DNA from: Candidatus Woesebacteria bacterium
GTDB lineage: Bacteria > Patescibacteriota > Microgenomatia > UBA1400 > UBA12028
DNA: 64,000 nucleotides
NCBI GenBank assembly: GCA_040006915.1
Contig: JBDTWD010000006.1
Coordinates: forward strand, 1,897 to 65,896
Direction: 5' to 3'
The translations under genes were made by a program, and so were the position numbers. Shown in pieces: positions 3,575 to 62,425 of the stretch. The first letter of the stretch is position 1. Every line of letters starts with the position of its first letter. The notes below the pieces were generated by a model, which did not search any database, had not been told where the DNA came from, and saw only the letters and a list, made by a program, of their open reading frames with translations.

Positions 3575-3579
3575 AGAGT

Positions 3580-4062: not shown

Positions 4063-4067
4063 ATGCT

Positions 4068-5357: not shown

Positions 5358-5436
5358 ATGAAAAACTCCTACAGAATGTATATACAGGTGTAGGATATCA
5401 CTCAAGTGGAGGAGTTTCTAGAAGTACAATAGAACA

Positions 5437-13995: not shown

Positions 13996-15438
13996 TCATA
14001 CAGATTCTTCCTGGGTAAGAGGCAGCTCAACGGTGAAGGTAGATCCTTTTTTGTAGGCACTCTCTACCTGAATCGTGCCACGGTAATGGCGCATTACTTG
14101 GCGCGCTAAATATAAACCAAGCCCGGAACCTTTAGCTGTACCCTCCCGTGCATGCCGTCCTCTGAAGAATGGATTGAATAATTTGGCCTGCTCTCGTTTT
14201 GGAATTCCAATCCCGTGATCACGGATAGAAAGCCGTACGAAGGTTCCTTCCACTTCGCGAGCAATTTCTACTGGCTCACTTACGGGTGAATACTTAATCG
14301 CATTCGTAATCAGGTTACTGATTACTTGTCCAAATCGATGCTTGTCGACTTTTACGTTGCTTTTTGTTTCTCCTGAAACCTCAAAAACTTCATGAGGTAA
14401 GGTTTTTTGCAACTCGAAAACAGTTTCAGTTACTAACTGATCAAAAGAAATAACCTCATCATGAAAAGGCAACTTTCCTGACCCAAGATAAATGGCATCT
14501 AACATTCCGTTAATTAAACCGGTGAGCAAATCCGTTTTCTCGTTGATGTGCTGAAGATAGCGACTGATTCTGGCATCCTCAGTTGGAGCAATGATTTTAA
14601 TTAACAGCTGCGTAAAGGCTTTAATCACTGCTAAAGGAGTTTTGAGTTCATGACCAACCAAAGCTAAGAAGCGATCTCGCTCCCGCTGTTCTAAAATTCG
14701 GGCAGTAGTGTCACGAAAAATGATGAGACTTTTCCCTGGTAAGAATTTCGAAAAGATTGACATTTCTACAAATAATTCATCGCCATTAGCGTGAGAGAAA
14801 TTCAGTGGAGCTAACTTCACGCTAGAACGCTTGGCACTTTGGAACAATTTATGAAAAGCAGTCTTTCCTTCTTTGGGAAAAAGCGTGAACACGTTCTCAC
14901 CAATAATCGAATTCTTTTTAAAAAAGGCCAAGGCGACAGGGTTTGCTTCTTCAATGATTCCGTCTTTGTTCAAAATAAGCTTTGAATCATGACTCACTTC
15001 AAAAATCAGCTTGTATCGAGCCTCATTTTCAATGAAACTATTTTTTTCCCTTAAAGCAATTGCTGCATCTAAAAACGAGACTACATAGGCTTTAGTCCCA
15101 TTTTCATCTTGGATTGGATTGATTGAATATTCGATCCAGCATGGAACATGATCTCTCCAGAAAATATCGAAATGCCGCATCACTTGAACATTACTCTGAA
15201 TGAGTTGAGTAAATGGACAAGCTCCCTGTGCATGCGTACGATCTTTGCGAGGGGCTTTATGGACGACCGCATGAATTGAGGTCCCAATAAGCTTCTCAAC
15301 GGGGAGATGGAAAAAATCCTGGGCTCCCTCATTGGCAAACTGAATGACTCCGTGTTCATCTAAAAAGAAGACACTTGCAGAAGCGTGTAGCAGTGAAAGT
15401 TTTGCAAATCGGTCGGCCCATTCCATACGAGCTATCAT
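13996..15438 (-). CDS. PAS-domain sensor histidine kinase
   Basis: 480 aa. H-box HELKTPLAVI, N/G boxes NLITNAIKYS and GSGLGL, PAS-like N-terminal region. Confidence 0.8.
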   Translation of the reverse strand: MIARMEWADRFAKLSLLHASASVFFLDEHGVIQFANEGAQDFFHLPVEKLIGTSIHAVVHKAPRKDRTHAQGACPFTQLIQSNVQVMRHFDIFWRDHVPCWIEYSINPIQDENGTKAYVVSFLDAAIALREKNSFIENEARYKLIFEVSHDSKLILNKDGIIEEANPVALAFFKKNSIIGENVFTLFPKEGKTAFHKLFQSAKRSSVKLAPLNFSHANGDELFVEMSIFSKFLPGKSLIIFRDTTARILEQRERDRFLALVGHELKTPLAVIKAFTQLLIKIIAPTEDARISRYLQHINEKTDLLTGLINGMLDAIYLGSGKLPFHDEVISFDQLVTETVFELQKTLPHEVFEVSGETKSNVKVDKHRFGQVISNLITNAIKYSPVSEPVEIAREVEGTFVRLSIRDHGIGIPKREQAKLFNPFFRGRHAREGTAKGSGLGLYLARQVMRHYRGTIQVESAYKKGSTFTVELPLTQEESV

Positions 15439-15540
15439 ACCGCATCAAGAGTATTCTTACTTTTCTCTTACGATTCGCACTCTTTCTTACCGAAAACTAC
15501 ATGCGATCATATTCTTATATTTAATATAAAGGAGGAGTAT

Positions 15541-15798
15541 ATGGGTTTACTTGCATGGTTGATCTTAGGATTACTAGCTGGTTGGATTGCGTCTATGGTA
15601 ATGAAAACCGATGCTCAACAAGGAGCTGTCATGGATTTGATCTTAGGAGTGGTAGGGGCAATGGTTGGAGGAGTGGTAATGAACCTGTTTGGCTCCGCTG
15701 GTGTAACCGGGTTTAACCTATACAGCCTCTTAGTCGCTACTCTTGGTGCTGTTATCCTTATTTGGTTGGGGAGAATGTTTAATCGAAACTCGATGTAG
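15541..15798 (+). CDS. GlsB/YeaQ/YmgE-family stress-response membrane protein
   Basis: 85 aa. Gly-rich two-TM pattern [23 protein letters not shown]. Strong AAAGGAGG SD upstream. Confidence 0.8.
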
Positions 15799-15943
15799 AT
15801 CTAGAGCGAACGTATCACGTTCTTACAGAGTGATCGATTGTAGTGTTATAGTAAATAATAATCCTTGGTTCAATCTCATCGATCCAAAGTCAGTATCTTT
15901 GTATATCCGTACAATTTGTGGGAGAAACGGGGAAAAAAGCAAA

Positions 15944-16315
15944 ATGAAGCTCAACTCACTCACTCCAGAAGAAAAACATGTGATTGAAGACAAAGGAACC
16001 GAAGCCCCTTTCACAGGTGAATACGACGACTTTTGGCTTGAAGGCACCTACAACTGCAGACGCTGTAACTCCCCACTGTACGAATCCACTGCCAAGTTTC
16101 ACTCAGGTTGTGGGTGGCCGTCGTTTGATCAGGAAATTCCTGGACAAGTGAAACGAATTCCTGATCCAGATGGATCTCGCATTGAGATTGAGTGTGCCAC
16201 CTGTGGCGCACACTTGGGACATGTTTTTATTGGGGAACACATGACAGATAAAAACACTCGTCATTGTGTCAATTCGCTATCAATGAAATTTGTTGCAAAG
16301 GAGAAAAAAGTATGA
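15944..16315 (+). CDS. msrB: peptide-methionine (R)-S-oxide reductase
   Basis: CxxC..CxxC zinc site (CRRC..CATC) and catalytic-region [17 protein letters not shown]. Start at the internal Met MKLNSL. Confidence 0.85.
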
Positions 16316-16845
16316 CAGAGGTTGCAACAGTAGCAGGCGGGTGTTTTTGGTGTACTGAGGCCGTTTTTAAACGCTTAAAAGGGGTAACCAAAGTGACACC
16401 AGGATATTCAGGTGGAAAAATGGATGATCCTGATTACGATCATGTTTCCATGGGAACAACTGGACATGCCGAAGCGATTCAACTGGAATTTGATCCTGAT
16501 GTTATCAGCTTTGACACCATTCTTGATGTGTTCTTTGCCACACATGATCCAACAACATTAAATGCGCAAGGGAATGATGTGGGAACTCAATATCGTTCGG
16601 TGATTTTTTATCACAACGAAGAGCAAAAAAAATTAGCAGAATCGAAAATGAAACCAGGGTATGTTACGCAAATTACGCGCTTCGAAAAATTTTATGACGC
16701 AGAGAGCTATCACAAAGATTATTACGACAAAAATAAAGACAGCAATCCATATTGTACAGTTGTCATTGATCCAAAAGTGAAAAAACTGCTACAAAAGTTT
16801 TCAGAAGAGATCAAACCAGAATATCTTTCACCCGTTGTGCAATAG
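16312..16845 (+). CDS. msrA: peptide-methionine (S)-S-oxide reductase
   Basis: GCFWC active site within [23 protein letters not shown] overlap with the msrB stop. Confidence 0.88.
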
Positions 16846-17752
16846 CCTCACTGGTTAATCCATACTTTGTGTATAGTTCTTGTGGAGTTCCAGATTCACC
16901 AAAGCTGTCTTGCATTCCCATGCGATGGACAGGAACAGGATATTCTTGTGAGAGTAATTCACACACACTGCTTCCCATCCCTCCCATGATTTGATGGTCT
17001 TCAATCGTAACCACTCTTTTGGTTTTCTTTACTGAAGTGAGAATCGTTTCTGAATCTAAAGGTTTTATCGTATGGTTATTAACTACTTCAGCATGGATTC
17101 CTTCTTTTTCCAAGACTCTAGCAGCTTTGAGGACCTCAGCCAATAAGGGGCCGCATCCAATAATGGTTACGTCACTTCCCTGTCGCAAAACATTTGCTTT
17201 TCCAATCGTAAATATGGATTCTGTAGTCACAATACTAGGGCTTTTTTCTCGGGTTAAGCGTACGTAACAGGGACCACTATACTGTGCGATCGCCAATGTT
17301 GCTTTCTTTGACTCACCACTATCTGCAGGAACCACGACAGTTAAATTAGGAAGCACTCTGGTAATGGCAATGTCTTCCAATCCTTGATGGGTAGCCCCAT
17401 CAGCTCCTACAGAAAGTCCTGTATGCCCACCGATAATTTTGACATTAGCTTGTGAATAACACACGGACACGCGCAGTTGATCCCAGTTTCTTCCAGGAGA
17501 AAATACAGCATAACTGCAGACAAAAGGAATTTTTCCGGAATGAGCGAGTCCGGCTGCAATTCCCATCATATTCTGTTCAGCAACTCCACATTCAATAAAA
17601 CGAGTGGGAAATTCCTTGGCAAAAGCAGTCAGCTTTAGTGAATCTTTTAAATCTGCCGTGAGCACCACAACACGCTCATCCGCACGTGCTGCTTCTACAA
17701 TTCCTTCTCCAAACCCGTCTCTGGTTGCGTATTCTTTTGGTTCCTCACTCAT
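16811..17752 (-). CDS. transketolase, C-terminal subunit (split transketolase)
   Basis: 313 aa, pyrimidine-binding plus C-terminal domains. Adjacent to the N-terminal subunit gene. Confidence 0.85.
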   Translation of the reverse strand: MSEEPKEYATRDGFGEGIVEAARADERVVVLTADLKDSLKLTAFAKEFPTRFIECGVAEQNMMGIAAGLAHSGKIPFVCSYAVFSPGRNWDQLRVSVCYSQANVKIIGGHTGLSVGADGATHQGLEDIAITRVLPNLTVVVPADSGESKKATLAIAQYSGPCYVRLTREKSPSIVTTESIFTIGKANVLRQGSDVTIIGCGPLLAEVLKAARVLEKEGIHAEVVNNHTIKPLDSETILTSVKKTKRVVTIEDHQIMGGMGSSVCELLSQEYPVPVHRMGMQDSFGESGTPQELYTKYGLTSEAIAQRVKDILV

Positions 17753-26020: not shown

Positions 26021-27370
26021 CTAGAATTCAACTTCTTGATGAAGAATCGGCATAGTAATATCTTCGAGGTGAAGCTGTGCCTTAATCTTCTCTGCCAGTG
26101 CACTTCGGGGCCCATCTTCTCCGTGGGTTAAGAATACCTTCTTCACTTGTTTAATATGTGAGAGCCACTCAAGCAGTTGTCCTTGATCCGCATGTGAGCT
26201 CATAACTTGCGTGCTATTGATGGTCGCCCGCACTGACACCACTTCTCCATCAATCGTGATCTCTTTTTTCCCTTCAAGTAGCTCTCGTCCATGAGTTCCC
26301 TCTCCTTGGTATCCAACGATCAGAAGACGAGTCGAGGGAATAGGTAAATAGTGGGCGGCGTGTCCTAGAATCCGTCCGCCTGACATCATACCGCTACCCG
26401 CAATAATCACTTGTGGTCGGGTTTCCCCTTCTACAGCTTCACTTCCTCTTCTATCCATAATCATTTGCAGTCCCATAAATGAAAATGGATCTCCAGAGAG
26501 CATATCGTTTTTTATGTGAGCGTTGAAATTCTCTGGATAGTTTTCATAAATATCAGTGGCTTTACTCGCCATCGGACTGTCCATGACAATTGGAGTTTCA
26601 AGTTTTACTTTTCCTTCTTTCTTCAGATGCATGATTGTGTGGAGCAACTCTTGGGTTCGCTCCAAAGAAAAAGCTGGAATGAGAAGTGTCCCTCCCGCAG
26701 TCTCAATTGCCTTGATCTCGGACATAATAATATCCGCGGGCACTCCTTCCGGATGTAATCGATCACCGTAAGTGGATTCCATCACCACAGCATCACTACT
26801 CTCTACCATTTCGGTGGGTTCCAACAAATCTTCAGGAGAATTCCCTAAATCACCGCTAAAAACTATTTTTCGGATTCCTGAATTTGGATGCGCATCTTCA
26901 ATCTCCAAACTTGCCGATCCCATGATATGACCGGCATCACGAAAGGTAACCGTGAATTCCCCTATTTGCACGGGAACGCGGTAATCAGTGGTCTTAAATC
27001 GAGAAAAGGTTTGTTCTGCTAAATCTTTGTCATACAGAATGACTTTGTCATCTTGTTTAGCAATCTTGGCACTATCTAGGAGTGATAATTCGGTCAGATC
27101 TTGGGTTGGCCTGGTCATCCAGATATCACCCGCAAACCCATGTGAAAGAAGAATTGGCAATCTACCACAATGGTCTAAGTGTGCATGCGTGAGAATTGCA
27201 GCACTTAAGGTGCTGCAATCATATTCAAATGGATCATAGTTTAATTTCTCAATTGCCGGTATCCCTTGAAACATCCCTAAATCAATTAGAACCGATTGTC
27301 CTGATCCTGAGGTCAGTACATAGGATGATCCGGTCACAGTTCCGCTGGCGCCAAGGAATTTTATTTTCAT
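26021..27370 (-). CDS. MBL-fold beta-CASP ribonuclease
   Basis: 449 aa. HAHLDHCG motif 2, beta-CASP architecture. Confidence 0.8.
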   Translation of the reverse strand: MKIKFLGASGTVTGSSYVLTSGSGQSVLIDLGMFQGIPAIEKLNYDPFEYDCSTLSAAILTHAHLDHCGRLPILLSHGFAGDIWMTRPTQDLTELSLLDSAKIAKQDDKVILYDKDLAEQTFSRFKTTDYRVPVQIGEFTVTFRDAGHIMGSASLEIEDAHPNSGIRKIVFSGDLGNSPEDLLEPTEMVESSDAVVMESTYGDRLHPEGVPADIIMSEIKAIETAGGTLLIPAFSLERTQELLHTIMHLKKEGKVKLETPIVMDSPMASKATDIYENYPENFNAHIKNDMLSGDPFSFMGLQMIMDRRGSEAVEGETRPQVIIAGSGMMSGGRILGHAAHYLPIPSTRLLIVGYQGEGTHGRELLEGKKEITIDGEVVSVRATINSTQVMSSHADQGQLLEWLSHIKQVKKVFLTHGEDGPRSALAEKIKAQLHLEDITMPILHQEVEF

Positions 27371-51095: not shown

Positions 51096-52265
51096 ATGTG
51101 GAATCCCATCCCGACTATCATTCCTCCAGGACTGCTTCAAAAACTGAAGAAAGAACAGGACGAACTGCGTGCGCAGATCATTCTCTCCAAGCCACCCTAT
51201 CCAATTCACATCATTTCTGGCTGTGACAGTGCGTTGATCGGTGATGATATTTTTTCCGTCTTTGTCACCTTCTCCTATCCAGACTTAAAAGAACTCGAAA
51301 TAGTCACCAAACGCTCTCCTCTCCCACTTCCTTATATCCCTGGGTTTTTAGCCTTCCGGGAGATTCCCAATCTTCTCTTGGCATATACCAAGCTCAAAAC
51401 CAAACCAGACCTCATCATGGTCGACGGCCAAGGGATCATGCACCCTAGACGTATGGGTATTGCAACTCATCTGGGGATTAAGCTTCAGGTTCCAACCATA
51501 GGCGTCGGTAAAAGCAAACTATTTGGAACATATAGTGAACCTGACCTTGCGCCAGGCTCTTTCACTTCTGTCACCCATAAAGAAGAAGTCTTAGGAATTG
51601 CGTTGCGCTCTAAACTGCGCAGTAACCCCCTGTTTATCTCTCCCGGATACTTATGTGACATCGAAACTGCGAAAAATCTCGTCCTCGCTACCTTACGTGG
51701 ATATCGCCTGCCCGAACCCACACGGCTTGCGGACAAGTATTCTAAAATCTTAAAACCCGCCCAGTCTCTAGAAGAAAAAGCACGTACAATGAATCAAATG
51801 ATCAAACCGAATACTCCAGCACCAGACTTCTCCCTTCCCGATCAGGATGACACTATTCGAACACTATCTGACTATAAAGGGAAATGGCTCGTAGTCTATT
51901 TTTATCCGAAGGATGATACGCCCGGATGCACCAAGGAGGCCTGTTCGTTTCGCGACAATTCACACAAACTGTTAAAGCGCGAGGTGGCTGTCGTCGGAGT
52001 CTCGAAAGACAGTGTCAAATCTCATAAAAAATTTGTTGATAAATATTCCCTTCCCTTTACGTTGCTTTCTGATCCAGAAAAAGTGATGATCCACGCCTAT
52101 GGAGCTTGGGGCACAAAGAAATTTATGGGACGAGAATATGATGGCATTTTGCGTACGACTTTTTTAATTGATCCCACAGGCATCGTCAAAAAAGTGTACG
52201 AGAACGTAAAACCCGATGAGCATGCGATCGCTATCCTTCAAGATATTGAAGCTCTTTCCGTGTAG
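51096..52265 (+). CDS. nfi: endonuclease V fused in-frame to peroxiredoxin Bcp/PrxQ
   Basis: Residues 1-230 are EndoV-like (DSALIGDD..YIPGFLAFREIPNLL..MVDGQGIMHPRR..GVGKSKL). Residues about 250-389 are Bcp-like (APDFSLPDQDD..WLVVYFYPKDDTPGCTKEAC). No stop codon separates them. An internal Met (MNQMIKPN) could also initiate Bcp on its own. Confidence 0.75.
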   Translation: MWNPIPTIIPPGLLQKLKKEQDELRAQIILSKPPYPIHIISGCDSALIGDDIFSVFVTFSYPDLKELEIVTKRSPLPLPYIPGFLAFREIPNLLLAYTKLKTKPDLIMVDGQGIMHPRRMGIATHLGIKLQVPTIGVGKSKLFGTYSEPDLAPGSFTSVTHKEEVLGIALRSKLRSNPLFISPGYLCDIETAKNLVLATLRGYRLPEPTRLADKYSKILKPAQSLEEKARTMNQMIKPNTPAPDFSLPDQDDTIRTLSDYKGKWLVVYFYPKDDTPGCTKEACSFRDNSHKLLKREVAVVGVSKDSVKSHKKFVDKYSLPFTLLSDPEKVMIHAYGAWGTKKFMGREYDGILRTTFLIDPTGIVKKVYENVKPDEHAIAILQDIEALSV

Positions 52266-52281
52266 AATAACTCCTATCGGT

Positions 52282-55200
52282 ATGAAAAATGTACGAGCAG
52301 CATTGACTTGGATCGATCACAATCTTCTTCTCTTGTGTTGTTTTTTTCTGTTGGCTTTTATCCCCCTGTATCCCAAGATTCCCTTGTTTGATGCGCTGCC
52401 TGGGTACATTGTCAAAGTTAGAGTAGAAGACTTCCTGGTTGTCTTTACCGGCCTTGTATGGCTGATCGGAGTAATTCGTAAACGCATCGAATGGAACATT
52501 AGCTATTTCTGGTTTGTGGCCCTCTACGCAATTGCCGGACTACTCTCCATTGCTCTGGGTGCTACCCTTTTAAATACGATCCCCGTGCAACTGCTCCATA
52601 TTGGCAAAAGTGGTCTCACTTGGGCTCGATACTTAGAATACTTTTCACTACTTTTCTTCTTCTTTTCTGCCATCAAAACCAAACGTCATATCGCCATCAC
52701 TATCATAATTTGCATGCTCACTCTTCTGGGTGTCGTCGGTTATGGTATCGGACAAAAATACGCACACTTTCCCGTATACTCCACGATGAATCGCGAATAC
52801 AGCAAGGGAGAGAAATTGTATTTGCAGGCAGGCGCCAAACCTCAATCAACCTTTGCTGGCCACTACGATCTCGCTGCATATCTAGTCATCATCTTACCGA
52901 TTCTTTTCTCTTTAGCATTAGGAAAAATGCGCCAGAAATTTACTGTGAAGAATTGGGGTATCGCCATTGTCATCATGGGAGTACACCTTACTGGCCTCTT
53001 CATGTTGGTACTGACTGCTTCTGCTACAGCTTTAGGCGGATATGGGATTGCGATGATTATAGTGGCACTGTTTCATCTCTGGCGTCTTCCGACCCTCAAA
53101 ACCAGACTTGCCTGGGGAGCTATTGCTCTTCTGCTAGCATTTATCGGACTGGCTGGTGTCTGGTTTATCGCTCCAGCAACCACCAAAGAGAAAGCCGTAG
53201 GACTACTGTTTGGAAAATCATCATCTGATATCCCAACTGACTTACTCGGTGACGGGTATGAGGACAAGCGCGTCGGCACTGCACAGCCAGATGGGACGAT
53301 CAAATATACGATTGTGCGTCAAAAAAGTACCTGGTCAGCCAACGCCTTAAAGTATGGGATCTCCATGGGAATCCGACTTGATACTTTATGGCCGCAAGCA
53401 CTCTTAGGGCTAGCTCGCAGTCCTTTAAGTGGGAGTGGCTATGGAACTCTAGCAATGCTTGATACTCAAGGATTTACAGAAGCAGATAGTACAGACAATA
53501 ATTTCTTGCGGACTTTAGGAGAGACAGGACTGGTTGGCTTCATTCTCTTCTATGGCATTATTTTTTCAGTCGCTCTAGCGACTTTTAAAGCCGGAAAGAA
53601 ATCACAAGATGAAACAACGAGCGGGTTGTCCATTGGATTATTTGGGGCGGTAATTGGCCTTTGTATCACTGCAATTTATTTAGATGTTTTTGCTGCATCC
53701 AAAGTTGCTTTTACGTTTTGGGCACTCACTGGCGTAGTATTACGCGCAATCTATATTCAGTATCCTGCCGTACTCATAGCTCCTGTGCAAAAATTCCGAA
53801 CCCATTTCTTCCGTCATTGGCCACTCTATGTAATCATCGTTTTGGCATTTTTCTTGCTACATCAAAATCCATTCTTACAACACACACCTACCAAAGATAT
53901 TGAGAACATGACAGCAGGTCTACAAAACCTCACCGCTGCTAAATGTCTTAATTCCGTTGGCAGTTTAAGTCTGTGTCGCAACTCAGGATTGGTATCTGCC
54001 TCACATCTTTCGTTCTACGCACTACTCCTCTCACTACTCTTACGACTCACCCCAGTATACGGAGTCTTTGCATATCTGAATCTGATGCTGATTGTGCTTT
54101 CTCTCATTGTTACATATCTATTGATACGTAAACGCGTCTCCAGACAAAGCACGATCGTAATTTTACTGTTTGGAGTTGGCTCTACGAGTCTGCATCAGTT
54201 GACTCAATCACCACTTCCTGAACTTTCATTCTGGCTACTGGTATTGTATCCATTGCTTGCCTTGGGACTCACTTTTGTCCTCAAATATAAACCGCTTCGA
54301 ATCATCGTAAGCATATTCAGTATCCTTTTGATTGTAATGGCCTTTGTGCACACTGATTTCTTACTTCGATTTCAAAACCGTGTTCCTAACTTTGCAACCG
54401 AGTCTATCCAAGTTGCCAATAACTCAATTGCCAAATCTATAGCCAAACCTGCGTATTTAATGAGTAGCTTAAATCCATACTTTGCGGATTTATATACACT
54501 ACCCAATTACACACTTTTGCCACTCTCAAGCCACCAACAGTATGCCGATCATCCGAGAAACATCTGGGAACAAACCAAGTCACCAAATGAACTAGTTGAA
54601 ACCAGCAATCTATTCGTCAGTGACTACCAAGCTCAAACAGGACAGCCCTACAATGCTGATTTTGAAACTGTGAAAAAAGCTTTTGATACTCACTATGTGA
54701 GACTAGGATGCAATGAACTCTGTAATATTTATAAGCTGACCAGTCCAAAACCCATCGTATCAGCTGACCCATTGGCTGTTTTTACCAACACCAGAATGGC
54801 AGTGCAAAAACTACCGACGACCTATCAATTTGCAGTGGTACCAAATGATTTTGACCCCAATCTACAGGACTCAACTATTTTCTATACCACAGCAACGTTT
54901 ACGAAGCGTCTGCTACCACTCCAAAACCAAAAAGAAAATTTCATGGTCCTCACTGGTGATGCGGTTCATAAACCGGAGAAAGTGCACGCAAACTTTACAC
55001 AGGCTTTTGCTTTCGCTACCGATTTTCCGATTTTATACGCACAAGGAAACGAAAAACTCCAACCCATTAAATATTTTGACGGAGAATTCCAAAGTTTCTT
55101 TACCCCGACAGAATACTTTATCCTTCTTGATATCCAACCCGACTCTCATATCGGTGACGACGAAAAGCTTCGCTTGTATGATGCCTTTTTACAGATTGAG

Positions 55201-55509
55201 AAACTGCCAAACATTCAATCAGTGTTCATCATTTCTCATGACTTAAACTGGCAGAATACCAGTGATCCAGAGAATGCGATGCATGCCATTGAAAAGAAAT
55301 TGGCAGCCTTCCCAAATCTTCACACTTATATCCTGACTGCAAACCATAGGAACAATTTAATGAAAGCGGAAAGCTGGTATGAAACCAAGACCAGTAGAAA
55401 CGTAACGTATGCAGCAGCCTTAACGGCTGGCAATACACGAGACGTATCATTCCAGGTACAAGTGAATCCTAGAAACGTTGAGATTAATCCACTTCAATTG
55501 GGAGAATGA
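52282..55509 (+). CDS. large polytopic membrane protein with O-antigen ligase/polymerase (Wzy_C)-like N-terminal region and ~450-aa C-terminal soluble domain
   Basis: About 1076 aa. N-terminal TM bundle PLYPKIPLFDALPGYIVKVRVEDFLVVFTGLVWL is typical of the O-antigen ligase family. A second TM cluster follows, then a large C-terminal domain of unknown fold. Confidence 0.5.
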   Translation: MKNVRAALTWIDHNLLLLCCFFLLAFIPLYPKIPLFDALPGYIVKVRVEDFLVVFTGLVWLIGVIRKRIEWNISYFWFVALYAIAGLLSIALGATLLNTIPVQLLHIGKSGLTWARYLEYFSLLFFFFSAIKTKRHIAITIIICMLTLLGVVGYGIGQKYAHFPVYSTMNREYSKGEKLYLQAGAKPQSTFAGHYDLAAYLVIILPILFSLALGKMRQKFTVKNWGIAIVIMGVHLTGLFMLVLTASATALGGYGIAMIIVALFHLWRLPTLKTRLAWGAIALLLAFIGLAGVWFIAPATTKEKAVGLLFGKSSSDIPTDLLGDGYEDKRVGTAQPDGTIKYTIVRQKSTWSANALKYGISMGIRLDTLWPQALLGLARSPLSGSGYGTLAMLDTQGFTEADSTDNNFLRTLGETGLVGFILFYGIIFSVALATFKAGKKSQDETTSGLSIGLFGAVIGLCITAIYLDVFAASKVAFTFWALTGVVLRAIYIQYPAVLIAPVQKFRTHFFRHWPLYVIIVLAFFLLHQNPFLQHTPTKDIENMTAGLQNLTAAKCLNSVGSLSLCRNSGLVSASHLSFYALLLSLLLRLTPVYGVFAYLNLMLIVLSLIVTYLLIRKRVSRQSTIVILLFGVGSTSLHQLTQSPLPELSFWLLVLYPLLALGLTFVLKYKPLRIIVSIFSILLIVMAFVHTDFLLRFQNRVPNFATESIQVANNSIAKSIAKPAYLMSSLNPYFADLYTLPNYTLLPLSSHQQYADHPRNIWEQTKSPNELVETSNLFVSDYQAQTGQPYNADFETVKKAFDTHYVRLGCNELCNIYKLTSPKPIVSADPLAVFTNTRMAVQKLPTTYQFAVVPNDFDPNLQDSTIFYTTATFTKRLLPLQNQKENFMVLTGDAVHKPEKVHANFTQAFAFATDFPILYAQGNEKLQPIKYFDGEFQSFFTPTEYFILLDIQPDSHIGDDEKLRLYDAFLQIEKLPNIQSVFIISHDLNWQNTSDPENAMHAIEKKLAAFPNLHTYILTANHRNNLMKAESWYETKTSRNVTYAAALTAGNTRDVSFQVQVNPRNVEINPLQLGE

Positions 55510-55515
55510 TTTTTT

Positions 55516-56760
55516 TTAAGCGACGAAAGTTAAAGCCTTACCGACCTTACCAGCGCGACCAGTTCGGCCAATGCGATGGATATAGTCTTCGTAGGAGTTT
55601 GGTTCGTCATAATTGATCACGTGAGTGACATCATTGATATCCAAACCACGGGCAGCAACGTCGGTCGCTAACAGCGCTTTGACGCGTCCCCGTTTGAAGT
55701 CTTCGAGTGATCGTTGACGAGCCCCTTGGGTTTTGTTCCCGTGGATACTCGTGACCCGGAGGCCGCGATCAAGCAAGATCTCTTCTAGTTTGGAAATCCC
55801 ATGTTTGGTACGACCGAACACAATGGCTCGTTCGCAATCCTGTGAGAGTAACAACTGAGTCAAGACATCAATTTTGTTTCCACCTGGTGGAACCCGGATG
55901 ACGTCTTGATCAATATGTTCATTTGTTTCAGTGACTTTAACACTGATACGGACAGGATCTTGGAGGAAGGTACGCATAATCTCTTCCACGTCTTTGGTGA
56001 TTGTGGCACTAAAGCACAGTGAATGTCGTTCCTTTGGGAGTAACGAGATCAAGTACTGAATATCTTTACGGAATCCAATATCAAGCATACGGTCCACTTC
56101 ATCAAGAACGATGGTGGTGAACAGCTCAGGTTTTAATGAGCGACGTTCAATCAGATCTTTTAATCGACCTGGGGTACCGATAACGATATGTGGGTTTCGT
56201 GAGAGCGATTGCATTTGGGCAGAGACACTTAAGCCTCCGACACATAACACCATTCCCACTGGAAGACCACGGGACAGAGAGCGGCATTCTTCTTCGACTT
56301 GGACCGCAAGTTCCCGGGTAGGAACCACGATCAGAGCCCCCTCTTGGGGATTGTTCGCAATACGATGCAAGATCGGAAGCAAGAATGCAGCTGTCTTTCC
56401 AGTACCGGTGTTCGCCAGTCCGACGACGTCTTTTCCAAGCATTGCTGCTGGAATCGCTTGGTCTTGGATTGGAGTCGGCTCAGTGTATCCATGCTTGGTG
56501 ATGTTTGACATCAGTTGGGCATGAAGGTTGAAATCAGCAAACGTGTTCGTAATAGGGGTAGGTGCTACCTCTGGACGTTCAGTTGCGTGATTGACATACA
56601 ATGACGGATGAATGTATTTGGGTCGAGGTCCACCTTGTGAGCGGGGTCCGCGACTACCAAACGAAGATCTTCCTCCTGAGGACGGGCGACTATTATAGCC
56701 TCCACCATAAGAAGGACGACTGGAATATCCACGGGATTGTGGACGAGCGTTATATGACAT
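55516..56760 (-). CDS. DEAD-box ATP-dependent RNA helicase with N-terminal RGG/SYGG low-complexity tail
   Basis: Q-motif FADF..GYTEPTPIQ, Walk A ANTGTGKT, DEVD, SAT, and HRIGRTGRAG motifs. The first about 50 aa (MSYNARPQSRGYSSRPSYGGGYNSRPSSGGRSSFGSRGPRSQGGPRP) form the low-complexity tail. Confidence 0.85.
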   Translation of the reverse strand: MSYNARPQSRGYSSRPSYGGGYNSRPSSGGRSSFGSRGPRSQGGPRPKYIHPSLYVNHATERPEVAPTPITNTFADFNLHAQLMSNITKHGYTEPTPIQDQAIPAAMLGKDVVGLANTGTGKTAAFLLPILHRIANNPQEGALIVVPTRELAVQVEEECRSLSRGLPVGMVLCVGGLSVSAQMQSLSRNPHIVIGTPGRLKDLIERRSLKPELFTTIVLDEVDRMLDIGFRKDIQYLISLLPKERHSLCFSATITKDVEEIMRTFLQDPVRISVKVTETNEHIDQDVIRVPPGGNKIDVLTQLLLSQDCERAIVFGRTKHGISKLEEILLDRGLRVTSIHGNKTQGARQRSLEDFKRGRVKALLATDVAARGLDINDVTHVINYDEPNSYEDYIHRIGRTGRAGKVGKALTFVA

Positions 56761-56958
56761 ACATTTCCTCTATTCTTTCGAGGAAAATGACGCCATATAG
56801 GGCTCAAAATCCTCAGACCATCTCAGAGTTACTGAATGGAAAAAATAATACTACCTTAGGGAGAGAATCACATTGGCGTCTGTCTTTTTGACTGACGACT
56901 TCACTACCGAAGAGCTACAGTATAGCACGTATATCCTATAACACAAGGAGCGGCCCTC

Positions 56959-57195
56959 CTAATGAGCCAAAACCCAATTAATGACTTCCCTTGCTAAGCT
57001 TGGAGTAATGAGTCTTTCGGAATCTGTAAAATCTCGCGTTTTCCCGTTCTCGTCAAGTAAAGCCAGGAAATCAGCAGCCTTCCTTCGTGCCGAAAGATCG
57101 TTAAAAGCGAGCTCAACCTTCCCTTCTTCCCTTTGGAAAGCGTCGATTGGGCCTAACAGTCTCAAGTCATTCACTTCAGGATTTAAGAGAGACAT
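56959..57195 (-). CDS. hypothetical small protein
   Basis: 78 aa, no motif. Confidence 0.3.
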   Translation of the reverse strand: MSLLNPEVNDLRLLGPIDAFQREEGKVELAFNDLSARRKAADFLALLDENGKTRDFTDSERLITPSLAREVINWVLAH

Positions 57196-57312
57196 AGATT
57201 CCTTTCTCTAATTTTATCCACAATAGACCTTTTAAAGGCAAAAACAAGGTGAATTCAAAAAGGGCCAGAGATTGCTCTCTAGCCCTTGAGGTTTTTAAGT
57301 TACGCGCAAGCT

Positions 57313-59622
57313 TTAAAAGTCTCGCTGTCCACGGTATCCACCGTTACCACCGCGATCTCGTTCGCCATTGCCGAAGTCATGAGATCCACCGCCCCGTGAA
57401 GGGCCACGTCCTCCACCCCCCTGTGGCCTCCCACCCCGATCACCGCCTCTAAATCCGCCTCCTTGTGGTCGACCTCCTCTATCTCCGCCTTCTCGTGGTC
57501 CACCCCCCTGTGAGGCTTTGGCAGCTTCTTGCTCTTTGGTCAACATGGTGAGGTTGTAGCGACCTTGATCATCAACTTCAGTTAATCGTACGTGAACACT
57601 GTCACCTAAATGAGCAACATCGTTGGCATCAGCAATATAGTCTGGTCCCATTCTCGAGACATGGACTAACCCTTCACGTCCTGGCAAGAATTCAACGAAT
57701 ACGCCAAAGCTTTCGACTCTGGTAATGATTCCATCAAATTCTTCTCCTGGATCAACTGATCGCATCATGCCAGCAATCCATGAACGAGCTGCTTCAATCT
57801 TCTCGGCATCATCAGATGAGATATTTACGATTCCAACGTTGCGTTCTTCATCTTCGTCTACATCGACTTGAGCCCCCGTGGTCGCAATGATATTTTTGAT
57901 CACTTTGCCACCTGGTCCAATCAATTCACCTATACGCTCTTGTGGGATCTCCAATTGCACAATCTTTGGTGCATATTTCGAGAGTTCTTTACGTGGTTCA
58001 GGGATCGCGGCAAGCATCTTGTCCAAGATGAAGAGTCGGGCCTCACGAGCTTGTTTTAAAGCCTTATGCATGACTTCCATTGGGATACCTTTGATCTTGA
58101 TATCCATTTGCATCGCAGTCACCCCTTCGGTCGTTCCTGCAACTTTAAAGTCCATGTCTCCGACATGATCTTCTAACCCTTGGATATCAGACAAAATAGC
58201 GTACTTGCCTTTCCCATCGCTCATCAGACCCATAGCAATTCCTGCTACTGGTCGTTTGATTGGGACACCTGCAGCCATCAGTGACATGGTACTGCCACAG
58301 ACCGATGCTTGTGAGGTACTTCCATTACTACTCATAATTTCTGACACCACCTGGATGGTGTATGGGAAATCTTTTTGTGATGGGATCATTGGCAAAAGCG
58401 CTCGTTCTGCCAAGGCTCCATGTCCGACTTCTCGGCGCTTTGGGGCACCGAATCGACCCGTTTCACCTGATGCATACGGAGGCATGTTGTAGTGATGTAT
58501 GTAGTGGCGTTCCTCTTCACCTTCTGCATCTTCAATCAGTTGTCCCATTGATGGGGCACCTAACGTGGTGATGGTTAAAGCTTGAGTGGCACCGCGCTTG
58601 AACATGGCACTTCCATGGACACGTGGGAGCAAGTCAACTTCACAAGTAATGGGACGAATTTCAGTCAGCTTTCGATCATCAGGACGAATATCGTCTTCCA
58701 AGATCATGCGTCGACCTTCTTCTTTCATTAAGTTGTAGAAAGCGTGTTTGACATCAGCCTCGCGCTCTACAAAGTCTGGTTGCTCAATTAAAATCTTGGC
58801 AATCACTTCTTCCAATCCAGTTGGCTTTAAGTTTGCTTCTAGTTTCACCATTTTGATGAGTTCATCATGATGAGAAACACGGAAAGCATCTTGGAGCTCA
58901 GTTTGTTCTGGCTCTGGGATGAATTCAAATTTCTTTTTGCCGATATCTTTGACCATTTCTCCAATTTCGTTTGCCATCGTGGAGAGTTGGGCTTGTCCTT
59001 CATCAAAGGCTCGCAACATAATTTCTTCACTGACTTCATTGGCTCCAGCTTCAACCATTACAATCGCTTCAGCGTTTCCACAGAGGATCAAATCCATCTG
59101 ACTTTTGGCGCGGTCTTCATGAGTTGGATTGAAAACGAATGAATCAGTCTCACTCATGTATCCAATACGCAGACCAGCAACTGGTCCATCGAATGGAACG
59201 GTAGAGATTGATGCAGCAGCACAGGAAGCGACGAGCGCCACCATATCAGCATCATTTTGCATATCAACTGACAATACAGTGGCAATACATTGCACTTCAT
59301 TGGTCAGTCCTTCAGCAAACATTGGTCGCAAAGTACGATCAATGACACGACCTTTGAGAATCATTTCATCAGTTGGTCTACCATCTCGTTTGACCCAACG
59401 ACTACCTTTAATACGTCCACCCGCATACAGTTTTTCTGCATACTCAACGGACAACGGAAAATACCCTAAGCTGGCTGGTTTTCCTAACGCAAAGGTAACG
59501 TGCACGACAGTCTCACCACAAGTGGCAAGAATCGCAGCATCGACTTGTTCGGAAAATCGTCCGACTTCGAGGGTTATGGTTTTATCACCGACATGAATGT
59601 CTTTGGTGTAGAACTTTGACAT
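57313..59622 (-). CDS. pnp: polyribonucleotide nucleotidyltransferase with C-terminal RGG-rich tail
   Basis: Start at MSKFYTKDIHVGD. Two RNase PH domains, KH (IGPGGKVIKNI), S1 (GIITRVESFGVFVEF), then about 60 aa of GGDRGGRPQGGGFRGGDRGGRPQGGGGRG. Confidence 0.9.
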   Translation of the reverse strand: MSKFYTKDIHVGDKTITLEVGRFSEQVDAAILATCGETVVHVTFALGKPASLGYFPLSVEYAEKLYAGGRIKGSRWVKRDGRPTDEMILKGRVIDRTLRPMFAEGLTNEVQCIATVLSVDMQNDADMVALVASCAAASISTVPFDGPVAGLRIGYMSETDSFVFNPTHEDRAKSQMDLILCGNAEAIVMVEAGANEVSEEIMLRAFDEGQAQLSTMANEIGEMVKDIGKKKFEFIPEPEQTELQDAFRVSHHDELIKMVKLEANLKPTGLEEVIAKILIEQPDFVEREADVKHAFYNLMKEEGRRMILEDDIRPDDRKLTEIRPITCEVDLLPRVHGSAMFKRGATQALTITTLGAPSMGQLIEDAEGEEERHYIHHYNMPPYASGETGRFGAPKRREVGHGALAERALLPMIPSQKDFPYTIQVVSEIMSSNGSTSQASVCGSTMSLMAAGVPIKRPVAGIAMGLMSDGKGKYAILSDIQGLEDHVGDMDFKVAGTTEGVTAMQMDIKIKGIPMEVMHKALKQAREARLFILDKMLAAIPEPRKELSKYAPKIVQLEIPQERIGELIGPGGKVIKNIIATTGAQVDVDEDEERNVGIVNISSDDAEKIEAARSWIAGMMRSVDPGEEFDGIITRVESFGVFVEFLPGREGLVHVSRMGPDYIADANDVAHLGDSVHVRLTEVDDQGRYNLTMLTKEQEAAKASQGGGPREGGDRGGRPQGGGFRGGDRGGRPQGGGGRGPSRGGGSHDFGNGERDRGGNGGYRGQRDF

Positions 59623-59779
59623 ATACGTGTATATTGCAGTCTGACTAAATCCCAGACTGTTCCTTATATAAATAATGTATAAAACAAAACAATGTGTTTT
59701 TTGGAAGAGAATGAAGAGTTCAATCGTACACGTCACTTTGGACGTACATGAGCGAAATCTTTATTCCCTTGTAAACACT

Positions 59780-60052
59780 TTAAATTCTCTTTCCGTTTCT
59801 CAGCAGATACATACTCGCAGCATTTCCAATATGCCCGGTTTCTTCAATTTCAACTTCGTAGTCCTTAACGGGATATCTCCCATCCGCCAATGCTCGTAGA
59901 GTCAAATTCCCTTTATTCCCTGCCGGAACTATTATTGGAATCGCTCTTTCTCCATTTGTCGGAATGTAGTGAATTTTGAAACGATCTTTCTCTCTTCCTC
60001 CTGAATGTTTTAATATTTCAACTGACTCAATCTGATGTACTTTTAATGCCAT
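59780..60052 (-). CDS. hypothetical protein
   Basis: 90 aa, inserted between rpsO and pnp; no motif recognised. Confidence 0.35.
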   Translation of the reverse strand: MALKVHQIESVEILKHSGGREKDRFKIHYIPTNGERAIPIIVPAGNKGNLTLRALADGRYPVKDYEVEIEETGHIGNAASMYLLRNGKRI

Positions 60053-60142
60053 ATATAAAAATATATCACAAACACTTTACGACCTTCCTATGTGAGACCC
60101 AGATTCTTTGCTCTACCTGACCGCTTCAGTTATAGTATTTTT

Positions 60143-60742
60143 TTATTGCCCTGTATATTCTTTCTTAATTGTAACAGTCATTGAACTTATAGCCGCAAAA
60201 CTTTTATTGATTCTGCCACAAATAAGATGATTTTGTAGGAGAACACTCTCCTGTATTACAATCCTAATCTCTGTTAATAACTTCTCTGCATTATCAGCAT
60301 TAGGAATTCTTAATTGCCCTTTTAACACAGCTTGGATAAGGAATGTTTCGCTATTTCCTCGAAGAGCGCGAGCAAGTGCTTCTACAGCATAGGGAACAAA
60401 ATCTTTATTTTTAGACGGAACACTTAAAAGAACTCGTCTTAACTCCTGTTGTAGTTTTTCTGCTAATTGATCCCGTTCTACAGGTTTTTCCTCAACCTTT
60501 AGAGGTTGTGGTGGTTGAATAACGTCCGATTCTACTTTTCCTCTACGATGTTGAAGATGACCTGGAAAAACCGCTTGTCGCCGTCTTTGTCTTCCAAACT
60601 TTCCTCCGGCTTTTGCAAAAGCTCCTCCATGTTCGCCACGTTCTCTTGGGTTTCCCAACGGATCATCGGTCGCCGAATCTGCATCTCCAACAGGAAGACT
60701 TTTACTCTCGCTTGCAATAATAGGGCCGAATTCTCTAGGCAT
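60143..60742 (-). CDS. hypothetical protein with Arg/Gly-rich N-terminal half
   Basis: 199 aa. The N-terminal region GGAFAKAGGKFGRQRRRQ is low-complexity; the C-terminal roughly 100 aa look like a folded helical domain. Confidence 0.35.
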   Translation of the reverse strand: MPREFGPIIASESKSLPVGDADSATDDPLGNPRERGEHGGAFAKAGGKFGRQRRRQAVFPGHLQHRRGKVESDVIQPPQPLKVEEKPVERDQLAEKLQQELRRVLLSVPSKNKDFVPYAVEALARALRGNSETFLIQAVLKGQLRIPNADNAEKLLTEIRIVIQESVLLQNHLICGRINKSFAAISSMTVTIKKEYTGQ

Positions 60743-60746
60743 ACTA

Positions 60747-61016
60747 CTATTTACTTAAGTTCAATTTTGCCAAAACTTCTTTGGCACGTTTCTCATCCTT
60801 ACGGACCAAGAAATTGACCAAGCGACGTCGTTTGGCAACCATTTTTAAGAGTCCTTTACGGGAATGATTATCTTTCTTGTGTTTCTTCAAGTGCTCTGTC
60901 AAATCATTAACCTGATAAGTCAAAAGTGCAATTTGCACCTCTGGTGATCCGGTGTCGCCTTCTTTGGTGGCGAAGTCGGTCATGATTTTTTGTTTGGCTG
61001 TTTTATCGAGAGCCAT
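60747..61016 (-). CDS. rpsO: 30S ribosomal protein S15
   Basis: 89 aa. [31 protein letters not shown] is the canonical S15 sequence. Confidence 0.9.
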
Positions 61017-61138
61017 ATGGTGTATCCTCCCTTGCTATCCGAGTAAAAAACCCAAGATAGAAAGTATCACTAACTATATAAGACCCATAGTATACCAGAG
61101 GCGAAGAGGATATTCAAATGGCACTCCTCGTTAGAACC

Positions 61139-61429
61139 TTAATCTTCCATTTTTTCATTTTCATTCGCTCGAAGATACGCAGGGTCTTTCTTTCCGTAAT
61201 AGAGGCTTCCATCCACTATATCTATATAAAAAGGATCTCCAATATTCAGATTGTCCCACATGTCATTCCAAAAACCAACAATTCCTGGAACCAAAGGAAT
61301 GAGTAAATCCTGGCTAGAACCCTCAAACACTAATCGAACAGTCATCTCTTCCATTTCCATTCCAGCAATAATATTTTTGCCAACAAATGGTCGATAGGCT
61401 TCGAACTTCTTAAGAATATCAACAGGCAT
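61139..61429 (-). CDS. hypothetical protein
   Basis: 96 aa, no motif. Confidence 0.35.
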   Translation of the reverse strand: MPVDILKKFEAYRPFVGKNIIAGMEMEEMTVRLVFEGSSQDLLIPLVPGIVGFWNDMWDNLNIGDPFYIDIVDGSLYYGKKDPAYLRANENEKMED

Positions 61430-61431
61430 AG

Positions 61432-62376
61432 TTATCCTTTCAATTCACCAGTAGCAGAATATCCGGCAGGCATGGTTCCCCCCGCTTGAGCGGTTTTGGA
61501 TAAGGCTGCAGCGAATGGGTTGTTGTTCGCAGGCACTGGTGTAGAAGCAGGGGCTGAGGAATTTCCACTTACTACTGGCTGTGTTGCACTGTTCCCTAGA
61601 AATGGCATTTGATTGGGACTCAAAGTCCCCTGTTGCCCAACTGGTTGACGCTTGCCACCAGCACGCAGAAGAGCGGCTACGGTCTCAAATGTATCAGCAC
61701 TGACGGTTGGACTATTCAAGCTTTGGGTAATGGAATCAAGGCCATACAAGAAATTTGAAGCACTATCATTCTCCAAAGGGAGATCTAGCTGCACACATAC
61801 ATTGGCTACCATCTCAGCCAAACTACTCATCCCGCTGGCATCAGCATGAAACTGGGCATAAGTTCCAACTGGAAACAAGGTAAAGGCAATAGTAAATGAT
61901 CCTTCGATCACATTGCGTTCTTCTTCATAGAAAGAACCGATATCAGTGTATCCATTCACTCCAATCAAAAAGGTCGCATCCGCTTCAACCCCAGCATAGT
62001 CAAATGCGACTGTGGCTGGATCTAACGCACTCACTCCCGTCTTTGGCGCAATCACTAAATTAAATCGCTTACCGTCATCACTAATGGTGTAGCTGACTTT
62101 TTCGACTTTGTCTTCATTATAGTCAAATGACACGACTAAATTTCGGTTGCCAATCTTTTTCTTCACTTCATCAACGCCGACTAATCTTGAAAATTCCACT
62201 CGCATGTCAGCCGGACAGGCAATTTGGACATCAATTCCTTTTTTGCGTAGCACTAAAAATAACCCCAGGGCGGAGGCCGCGGAGTCAATATTGGGAGTAC
62301 TACTCATTAAAATAAGCGCTTTATGGATTGAAGAAATCTTTTCTTTTAGTGAATCAAGCGAAGGAACGGACTTCAT
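61432..62376 (-). CDS. DHH-superfamily-like protein with degenerate catalytic motifs
   Basis: NrnA-like length and layout (N-terminal alpha/beta domain, later GG-containing region), but the DHH motif position reads SST/NID. Start set at MKSVPS (AGGA 9 nt upstream); the ORF extends to 62412. Confidence 0.4.
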   Translation of the reverse strand: MKSVPSLDSLKEKISSIHKALILMSSTPNIDSAASALGLFLVLRKKGIDVQIACPADMRVEFSRLVGVDEVKKKIGNRNLVVSFDYNEDKVEKVSYTISDDGKRFNLVIAPKTGVSALDPATVAFDYAGVEADATFLIGVNGYTDIGSFYEEERNVIEGSFTIAFTLFPVGTYAQFHADASGMSSLAEMVANVCVQLDLPLENDSASNFLYGLDSITQSLNSPTVSADTFETVAALLRAGGKRQPVGQQGTLSPNQMPFLGNSATQPVVSGNSSAPASTPVPANNNPFAAALSKTAQAGGTMPAGYSATGELKG

Positions 62377-62425
62377 TGTGGTTGATCCTAACACAGTAGA
62401 GAAAAGATGCAAGAGAAAAGAACAA

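Follow-up and report, generated by a model that had tools for sequence, protein, structure and literature searches.

Predicted disordered, arginine-rich tails of different classes on polynucleotide phosphorylase and a neighbouring DEAD-box helicase of Candidatus Woesebacteria

The DNA considered here is a 64,000-nucleotide stretch (64 kb; hereafter the window) of contig JBDTWD010000006.1 from the metagenome-assembled genome of a Candidatus Woesebacteria bacterium, a member of the Patescibacteria (CPR). Two neighbouring genes on its minus strand, one for a DEAD-box RNA helicase and one for polynucleotide phosphorylase (PNPase, gene pnp), encode enzymes with arginine-rich, low-complexity tails, at the N-terminus of the helicase and at the C-terminus of PNPase. 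An earlier note on this DNA described both tails as RGG-type and suggested that they are a shared module, perhaps of a degradosome-like assembly. Both tails are present and conserved in relatives. With a probability that we put at about 0.6, they are two independently evolved, lineage-conserved disordered RNA-binding appendages on otherwise ordinary enzymes, whose genes happen to lie side by side in a Woesebacteria sub-clade. Independence is suggested because the tails differ in composition class, share no same-genome excess of short words, lie in unconserved gene order and are encoded on either side of a terminator that follows pnp.

The pnp gene (57313..59622, minus strand) encodes a protein of 769 residues with two RNase_PH domains, a KH domain (residues 555-616) and an S1 domain (residues 625-688) in Pfam. 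Its start was placed at the ATG at 59622; the mechanical open reading frame (ORF) extends to 59736, but the NCBI homologue P0121 has 769 residues and is covered at 100%. The protein is 100% identical to an NCBI entry named Candidatus Woesebacteria. It scores above the cut-offs of the NCBIfam PNPase equivalogs PRK11824 (851 bits versus 471, residues 7-694) and TIGR03591 (847 versus 525), and solved PNPases match residues 5-709. Behind the S1 domain lies an acidic linker (57502..57540, minus strand; residues 695-707) with a predicted helix at residues 696-706 and the consensus T-P/K-E-Q-E, which is kept in homologues. The protein then ends in an RGG/DRGG tail (57316..57501, minus strand; residues 708-769) that falls beyond all PNPase models and all solved structures. 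In agreement with the earlier description of a repeat tail of about 60 residues past S1, it comprises 62 residues that are predicted to be disordered by AlphaFold2, with a predicted local distance difference test score (pLDDT) below 50. It contains five RGG and seven RG motifs, including RGGDRGG with a spacing of 1. A di- or tri-RGG domain is reportedly defined (by Thandapani et al., in 2013) by RGG or RG repeats lying 0-4 residues apart in a disordered region, and the PNPase tail is of this kind. Glycine or arginine makes up 41 of the last 64 residues (64%), compared with a background of 10.5% (P = 8e-25), and nowhere else in the window, in any of the six frames, does R+G reach 50% or more over 30 residues. 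GGDRGGRPQGGG occurs twice in it, forming a weak tandem repeat of period 30 (57441-57504).

The helicase gene (55516..56760, minus strand) encodes 414 residues and belongs to a Patescibacteria family with an N-terminal extension. The protein, 100% identical to an NCBI Candidatus Woesebacteria entry, contains the Pfam domains DEAD (residues 96-261, E = 1e-45) and Helicase_C (residues 296-404, E = 1e-32), and its translation shows, as in RecA1 and RecA2 domains, the Q motif (GYTEPTPIQ) and motifs I (ANTGTGKT), III (SAT) and VI (HRIGRTGRAG) of superfamily 2. Motif II reads DEVD instead of DEAD (56092..56103, minus strand; D220-E221-V222-D223). This variant is invariant in helicase alignment A1 and present in all 119 close homologues; DE[V/F/M]D was found in 58 of 82 representatives with an N-terminal extension and in 5 of 40 with a C-terminal one. 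DECD-type variants of motif II occur in accepted members of the DEAD-box family. DEVD, which keeps the acidic residues although the literal D-E-A-D is absent, is thus a variant that does not exclude the protein from the DEAD-box helicases. The closest solved core is that of CshA (5ivl, E = 1e-87), and the match begins at residue 72. No NCBIfam equivalog model reaches its cut-off with this protein, and every match starts between residues 69 and 74: the best score, that of CshA, is 396 bits against a cut-off of 646 and covers residues 74-413 only, and the RhlE, RhlB, DbpA, SrmB and DeaD/CsdA models give 242-341 bits, all under cut-offs of 507-989. The protein ends only 10 residues past motif VI and has no C-terminal extension.

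At the other end, the N-terminus, which starts MSYNARPQSRGYSSRPSYGGGYNSRPSSGGRSSFGSRGPRSQGGPRP, is predicted to be disordered over residues 1 to about 43 (56632..56760, minus strand). This region is rich in R, S, G, Y and P, has a net charge of about +8 and lacks acidic residues. S, G, R, P or Y accounts for 40 of the first 47 residues (85%), against 25% in 59 other genes of the window (binomial P = 7e-18), and none of the 47 is acidic. The pLDDT stays below 50 over residues 1-37, and order sets in at about residues 44-51. With no RGG and two RG far apart, beyond the spacing of 0-4 residues given above, the tail is best described from its sequence as a cationic R/S/G/aromatic disordered region rather than an RGG domain; the earlier label of RGG tails on both enzymes therefore holds for PNPase and not for the helicase. 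After M1, the next in-frame methionine is M84, which lies within the core. In the untranslated region 5' of the gene (56761..56958, minus strand), a ribosome-binding site, AGAGGA, lies 5-10 nucleotides before the ATG, and no Rfam family matches this region.

The low-complexity tail had been estimated at about 50 residues. That estimate stands up to about residue 43; from about residue 44 onward the chain is a conserved element that is predicted to be ordered (56542..56631, minus strand; residues 44-73, GPRPKYIHPSLYVNHA...) and links the disordered region to the Q-motif region. Its pLDDT is 69-90, with a helix at residues 52-55, and AlphaFold2 places its motif, Y-I-x-P-S-x-Y-V-N, in the folded core. 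Y55 is invariant in the alignment of 107 helicase sequences, and the motif is found again in distant family representatives whose N-terminus is extended. Among solved structures from bacteria, none includes residues 44-73. The AlphaFold2 predictions drew on alignments of 107 helicase and 89 PNPase homologues, and the mean core pLDDT was 88 and 87, respectively.

Absence of the tails from close relatives had been named as the result that would expose them as an assembly or frameshift artefact. They are kept: all 120 of the best PNPase homologues (58-100% identity) carry 47-137 residues past S1, built of units of the GGDRGG, FRGG and RPPFRGG types, and among 119 helicase homologues (57-80% identity) 113 bear an N-terminal tail of 20 residues or more. 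The pooled PNPase tails consist of G (34%), R (19%), D (7%) and E (5%), with a net charge per residue of +0.09 and a median of six RGG. The pooled helicase tails consist of R (20%), S (17%) and G (16%), with 0.9% acidic residues, a net charge per residue of +0.22 and a median of zero RGG. All helicase homologues terminate in ...AGKxGKALTFV. The rapid turnover of tail sequence and length, with composition kept, is as expected of functional disordered regions.

The helicase family profile was searched against 1.84 billion cluster representatives, and the best 150 clusters at 50% identity were examined. In 83 of these 150, an N-terminal extension of 44-344 residues (median 103; S 18%, G 16%, R 16%) is combined with 12 residues or fewer past the core. 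The ordinary bacterial type, with an N-terminus of 30 residues or fewer and a C-terminal extension of median 188 residues (R 16%, G 12%), prevails from about rank 95 on. Judged from these architectures, the helicase family has in effect shifted the basic disordered region from the C- to the N-terminus. It is this family, with its N-terminal disordered region, conserved ordered motif, lack of a C-terminal extension and non-canonical motif II, that looks new. As had been expected, it is unusual for a bacterial DEAD-box protein to carry its basic extension at the N-terminus; Type II RhlB of Pseudomonas aeruginosa is a published precedent (PMC13462270). In three family members, P0257 (685 residues), P0320 (638) and P0339 (634), the N-terminal disordered extension spans about 290-344 residues, nearly the length of the catalytic core.

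Homologue matches that carry an organism name, for both PNPase and the helicase, are all from Patescibacteria. A scan of one genome per species yielded 80 pnp loci. All 41 complete PNPases of Patescibacteria type among these species-level genomes have a net-positive tail, and in 29 of them R+G reaches at least 45%. R/G-rich tails of 34-123 residues are also found in Chloroflexota PNPases (7 of 7 loci), and an R/P-rich tail in 3 of 29 other PNPases (Clostridia-type), the rest of which end within a median of 13 residues that are K/E-rich. A survey of prokaryotic low-complexity regions (LCRs) reported a 10.4-fold enrichment of R and a 2.9-fold enrichment of D in the LCRs of PNPases, and a 6.8-fold enrichment of R in those of helicases; its authors interpret the arginine enrichment as RNA binding, and its supplement catalogues PNPases from other phyla with G/R-rich stretches at the C-terminus (PMC6821194). 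The PNPase tail is thus a widespread, already catalogued and functionally unstudied feature that is near-universal in Patescibacteria. The suggested lineage specificity applies to the helicase architecture and not to the PNPase tail. Full-text literature searches returned no paper on PNPase or helicase tails in Patescibacteria. A search with the PNPase tail alone against a database of 5.8 billion proteins gave 399 candidates, none of which was scored, probably owing to the low-complexity correction. Many records titled 'uncultured Pseudomonadales bacterium' (L002, L005, L006, L008, L009 and others) encode PNPases 70-92% identical to that of Woesebacteria with the same tail, and their titles are apparently mislabelled.

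Specificity to these proteins was approached with 2435 ORFs of at least 60 residues from 44 Patescibacteria-type loci and the window (about 0.9 Mb). R/G-rich stretches occur essentially in PNPase and the helicase only, apart from a structured DnaJ-like loop and a few spurious ORFs, and RNase Y and RNase J of the same loci have no R/G tail. This confinement indicates that the tails are no proteome-wide compositional habit. The specificity to the two enzymes is provisional, the sample being made up mostly of pnp neighbourhoods and biased relative to whole proteomes.

The tails do not resemble each other as parts of one module would. The helicase tail is strongly cationic with hardly any acidic residues and no RGG, and the PNPase tail is of a true RGG/DRGG type. 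For tails paired within 12 genomes, the sharing of 3-, 4- and 5-mers did not exceed that of permuted pairings (p = 0.33, 0.11 and 0.13, respectively). Co-evolution of the tails, or gene conversion between them, was rejected as a general pattern on the lack of a same-genome k-mer excess, and the evidence speaks against a shared module.

The linkage of the two genes is likewise local. Their order on the minus strand is rpsO, a 199-residue ORF, a 90-residue ORF, pnp, a hairpin, a 78-residue ORF and the helicase. They are neighbours, as had been noted, and lie on the same strand; 552 nucleotides separate them, and a strong intrinsic-terminator-like hairpin (57260..57287, minus strand) with a 12-bp stem containing six G-C pairs, followed by TTTGAATT, lies 26 nucleotides past the pnp stop. 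Of 43 other Patescibacteria-type loci, three (L002, L003 and L021) have the helicase no more than 10 kb from pnp, upstream of rpsO-pnp in the case of L021, and it is adjacent in L085 too. In about 38 of the 43, including L004-L007 with 79-83% identical PNPases, pnp has no neighbouring helicase, and outside the linked loci the helicase sits amid unrelated genes. A conserved pnp-helicase operon was rejected in view of the terminator after pnp and the confinement of adjacency to a sub-clade. The genomic signals that would support a degradosome, conserved linkage or co-evolution, were not seen; adjacency is local, the tails do not co-vary and a terminator intervenes.

The suggestion that such an assembly would rely on neither RNase E nor RNase Y as its scaffold found no support in related genomes. 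In the Woesebacteria locus L039 a protein passes the RNase Y equivalog TIGR03319 (526 bits versus a cut-off of 454), and a homologue 69% identical to it is encoded in L034. In both loci RNase Y lies about 4 kb upstream of rpsO-pnp and RNase J about 5 kb downstream of pnp, and RNase J is encoded in five Patescibacteria-type loci in all (L012, L034, L037, L039 and L040). As far as gene content can tell, a conventional RNase Y scaffold would be available in related genomes, and the scaffold-free premise is weakened; the genome of the window itself was seen for 64 kb only. The RNase Y and RNase J genes form an RNA-decay cluster around rpsO-pnp (L034, 4833-6566 and about 15022-16656; L039, 4264-5940 and about 16377-17617). 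The RNase Y match begins at profile position 38, with a P/A/Q-rich stretch replacing the N-terminal segment of the model, and the RNase J gene of L039 is apparently frameshifted. RNase J was not found within the 64-kb window. A 449-residue metallo-beta-lactamase/beta-CASP/RMMBL protein (26021-27370, minus strand) was considered for this role and ruled out because its best matches, below cut-off, are archaeal aCPSF1 and Cas14 of type VII CRISPR; it may be an RNA-processing nuclease.

By analogy with better-studied enzymes, the two tails would most likely act on RNA, each in its own way. PNPase is a trimer. In Patescibacteria its standard body of two RNase PH domains, KH and S1 is extended by a short acidic linker and an RGG/DRGG tail of 50-130 residues, and three such tails would hang from the KH/S1 face, on the side of RNA entry. 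There they would most likely add non-specific multivalent affinity for RNA, capturing 3' ends and structured RNA and raising the local substrate concentration. In the helicase, the disordered region would most likely tether a non-specific core to RNA, stimulate ATPase and unwinding and permit RNA-dependent clustering, and the ordered Y-I-x-P-S-x-Y-V-N element would pack on the core. This role is modelled on what is known of the C-terminal RhlE and DeaD tails or of the N-terminal regions of Type II RhlB, Ded1/DDX3 and DDX4. Such tethering and stimulation have been demonstrated for the N-terminal disordered region of P. aeruginosa RhlB (PMC13462270) and for RhlE C-terminal regions (PMC11260450). 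RNA-dependent clustering is plausible for PNPase and the helicase alike.

Several observations weigh against two independent appendages and favour instead a matched pair, in which the tails unite PNPase and the helicase on RNA in a degradosome-like complex or condensate and the enzymes, rather than an RNase E or RNase Y scaffold, bear the multivalent regions. Both tails are arginine-rich and predicted to be disordered, and their bearers are the sole R/G-tailed proteins in the sampled Patescibacteria DNA. The genes are neighbours in the window and in at least five relatives (L002, L003, L085, L021 and a 6-kb contig that encodes both P0006 and P0131). Together these facts leave room for a functional link. 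In L002 an identical 12-mer, GGRPQGGGFRGG, stands in both tails, encoded by sequences that agree at 30 of 36 nucleotides, the six differences being nearly all synonymous and at third positions. Direct association of RhlB with PNPase is described in Escherichia coli (Liou et al., 2002, as cited in PMC13462270), and condensation enhances PNPase activity in Caulobacter (PMC10412687). The functions ascribed to the tails as separate RNA binders, moreover, are drawn by analogy. A matched pair nevertheless appears unlikely. The L002 helicase tail also matches the PNPase of the window, so that the shared 12-mer is not genome-specific. The genes lie apart in most pnp loci, pnp has its own terminator, and the tails differ in class and do not co-vary within genomes. 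RNase Y and RNase J stand beside rpsO-pnp in related genomes, and PNPase tails extend to phyla in which this helicase family was not encountered. A bolder version, which we regard as a long shot, would have the Patescibacteria, with their tiny cells and reduced genomes, move the multivalent disordered regions that organise RNA decay from the scaffold RNase to the client enzymes; an RGG-tailed trimeric PNPase and a DDX3/DDX4-like helicase would then co-condense with RNA in a decay body resembling bacterial ribonucleoprotein bodies (BR-bodies), and the helicase family, marked by its Y-I-x-P-S-x-Y-V-N flank and a DE[V/F/M]D motif II, would correspond in bacteria to the eukaryotic germ- and stress-granule helicases or even be related to them.

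The tails might, alternatively, be protein-docking or regulatory elements rather than RNA binders, for example with the helicase docking to the ribosome, RNase Y or RNase J through its ordered element or cationic region, and the linker and RGG tail of PNPase auto-regulating the KH/S1 RNA gate. The invariant tyrosine in a short motif kept across very divergent family members, and the acidic linker conserved before the basic tail in all PNPase homologues, would suit such a role. This is a rather improbable explanation, as AlphaFold2 puts the motif in the folded core and not in a free linear segment, and the low-complexity parts change fast in sequence and length with composition kept, a better fit to non-specific electrostatic RNA binding. 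That the tails are non-functional, whether through an assembly or frameshift artefact, a wrong start or stop, or neutral slippage expansion of G-rich DNA, is scarcely credible. The weak period-30 repeat in the PNPase tail and a tail length varying between 59 and 89 residues among relatives with 92-94% core identity would suit this reading. Against this, the same architecture recurs in hundreds of independent assemblies (NCBI, JGI, ENA and Logan), composition is preserved at 57-60% core identity, mixed glycine codons speak against a simple microsatellite, and the helicase has no in-frame methionine between M1, with its ribosome-binding site, and M84. Independent RNA-binding appendages account best for the data as a whole.

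The general phenomena are already known: disordered tails of DEAD-box proteins are established and G/R-rich ends of PNPases are catalogued, and nothing is overturned here. The nearest published parallel to the helicase tail is Type II RhlB of P. aeruginosa, whose N-terminal disordered region brings about phase separation in an RNA-dependent way and increases RNA binding, ATPase and unwinding (PMC13462270). Both are bacterial DEAD-box helicases with an auxiliary disordered region at the N-terminus, that of RhlB being P/R/K-rich. The window helicase belongs to another subfamily, however, for which the NCBIfam RhlB models give 242-292 bits against cut-offs of 564-732, and its family is set apart by the Y-I-x-P-S-x-Y-V-N element, the DEVD motif II and the lack of a C-terminal extension; P. 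aeruginosa RhlB also works with an RNase E scaffold. CshA, RhlE and DeaD have the nearest cores and extensions of similar R/G/S composition, but in these proteins the basic extension is C-terminal, and no equivalog cut-off is reached by the window helicase. C-terminal disordered regions define the function of RhlE proteins (RhlE1/RhlE2, PMC11260450). In the window helicase, the 10 residues past motif VI leave no room for a C-terminal region of the CshA type. CshA uses that region for dimerisation and RNA binding.

Eukaryotic DDX4/Vasa, DDX3X/Ded1 and LAF-1 share the layout of the window helicase: a disordered, R/G-rich N-terminus, a short ordered flank and then the core. The family profile aligns I-x-P-S-K-Y-V-N with IHFSKYNN of Vasa and INFEKYDD of DDX3X and extends through the element for these two only; by a hand count from the profile alignment, the spacing from the motif to a conserved phenylalanine is 19 residues, the same as in Vasa and DDX3X. 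Foldseek alignments of the helicase span 385-404 columns with Vasa/DDX3, compared with about 344 for CshA. Scored alone against Vasa and DDX3X, the flank motif gives 0.6 and -1.8 bits, and 262 and 871 of 2000 shuffles are as good, which is not significant. The core of the window helicase lies nearer to bacterial CshA, and homology of the flank to Vasa/DDX3X is a lead only, unproven.

The repeat unit of the PNPase tail, GGDRGG(F/Y)RGG, is nearly that of FUS, EWS and TAF15. An arginine methylation system is not known here. The RGG domains of FET and other RGG-motif proteins show degenerate specificity in binding RNA, and they promote condensation (review, PMC9718894). Here the RGG units are placed on a bacterial phosphorolytic exonuclease, and the resemblance is one of analogy only. 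The catalogued LCRs of PNPases are of the same enzyme, at the same end and of the same kind of composition, as in ENA ABF40996 ('GDRPDRGPRPHGGGGGAGRGGRGRRPGG...'), ACO32008 and Salegentibacter (residues 721-750, 'RGRDNRGSRDNRGRDDRRG...'); the catalogue is statistical, with no focus on Patescibacteria, whereas the Patescibacteria tail is near-universal and of a regular GGDRGG/FRGG type (PMC6821194). Degradosomes are based on RNase E, on RNase Y in Firmicutes and on RNase J-RhpA in Helicobacter pylori (PMC3592473). The enzyme classes are the same here as in degradosomes and BR-bodies, a PNPase and a DEAD-box helicase, but in those systems disordered regions and docking sites belong to a scaffold RNase.

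If the tails work as proposed, they would be an example from nature, on the scale of a phylum, of how bacteria tune RNA enzymes by means of disordered, arginine-rich appendages. An RGG tail, best known from eukaryotic RNA-binding proteins, would be found on a universal exonuclease, and a helicase family would carry an N-terminal basic tail like that of eukaryotic DDX3/DDX4. The two proteins would offer researchers of condensates and RNA decay a simple pair for work with deletion constructs, and annotators would gain a recognisable Patescibacteria helicase subfamily.

Upstream of pnp lies rpsO (60747..61016, minus strand; Pfam Ribosomal_S15), which encodes ribosomal protein S15 and is the usual upstream partner of pnp, present in 70 related loci by tblastn. 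It ends about 220 nucleotides before pnp in close relatives such as L002, compared with 1124 nucleotides in the window (59623-60746, minus strand). This gap, which may be a strain-specific insertion, holds the 199-residue ORF (60143-60742, with an R/G-rich patch) and the 90-residue ORF (59780-60052). These two and the 78-residue ORF between pnp and the helicase (56959..57195, minus strand) have no Pfam or NCBIfam match and no homologue in the 80 related loci; for the last, tblastn gave a match in the identical Logan contig L001 only, and this ORF is probably no part of the feature. The small ORFs were dropped as partners of PNPase or the helicase on these grounds. An Rfam scan of 55000-61500 returned just a chance match on the terminator and a sub-threshold S15 leader upstream of rpsO (60960-61086, minus strand; 22.7 bits versus a gathering score of 39.5, E = 0.054).

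Just upstream of rpsO, in the window (61432-62412, minus strand) and in 15 Patescibacteria-type loci, lies a gene for a 326-residue protein with a weak match to the DHH family and a low-complexity C-terminal tail of its own, rich in Q, P, A, S and N. It may be a nanoRNase-like enzyme whose gene clusters with pnp. Enolase is a component of the degradosome in E. coli. In the window its gene (4068-5405) adjoins that of cofactor-independent phosphoglycerate mutase (2045-3574) in a minus-strand segment (2045-5405) and lies 50 kb from pnp with no sign of linkage. On the far side of the helicase, a plus-strand gene (52216-55509) encodes a multi-pass membrane protein of 1097 residues with a weak match to Wzy_C (O-antigen ligase); it is convergent with the helicase gene and ends 7 nucleotides from its stop.

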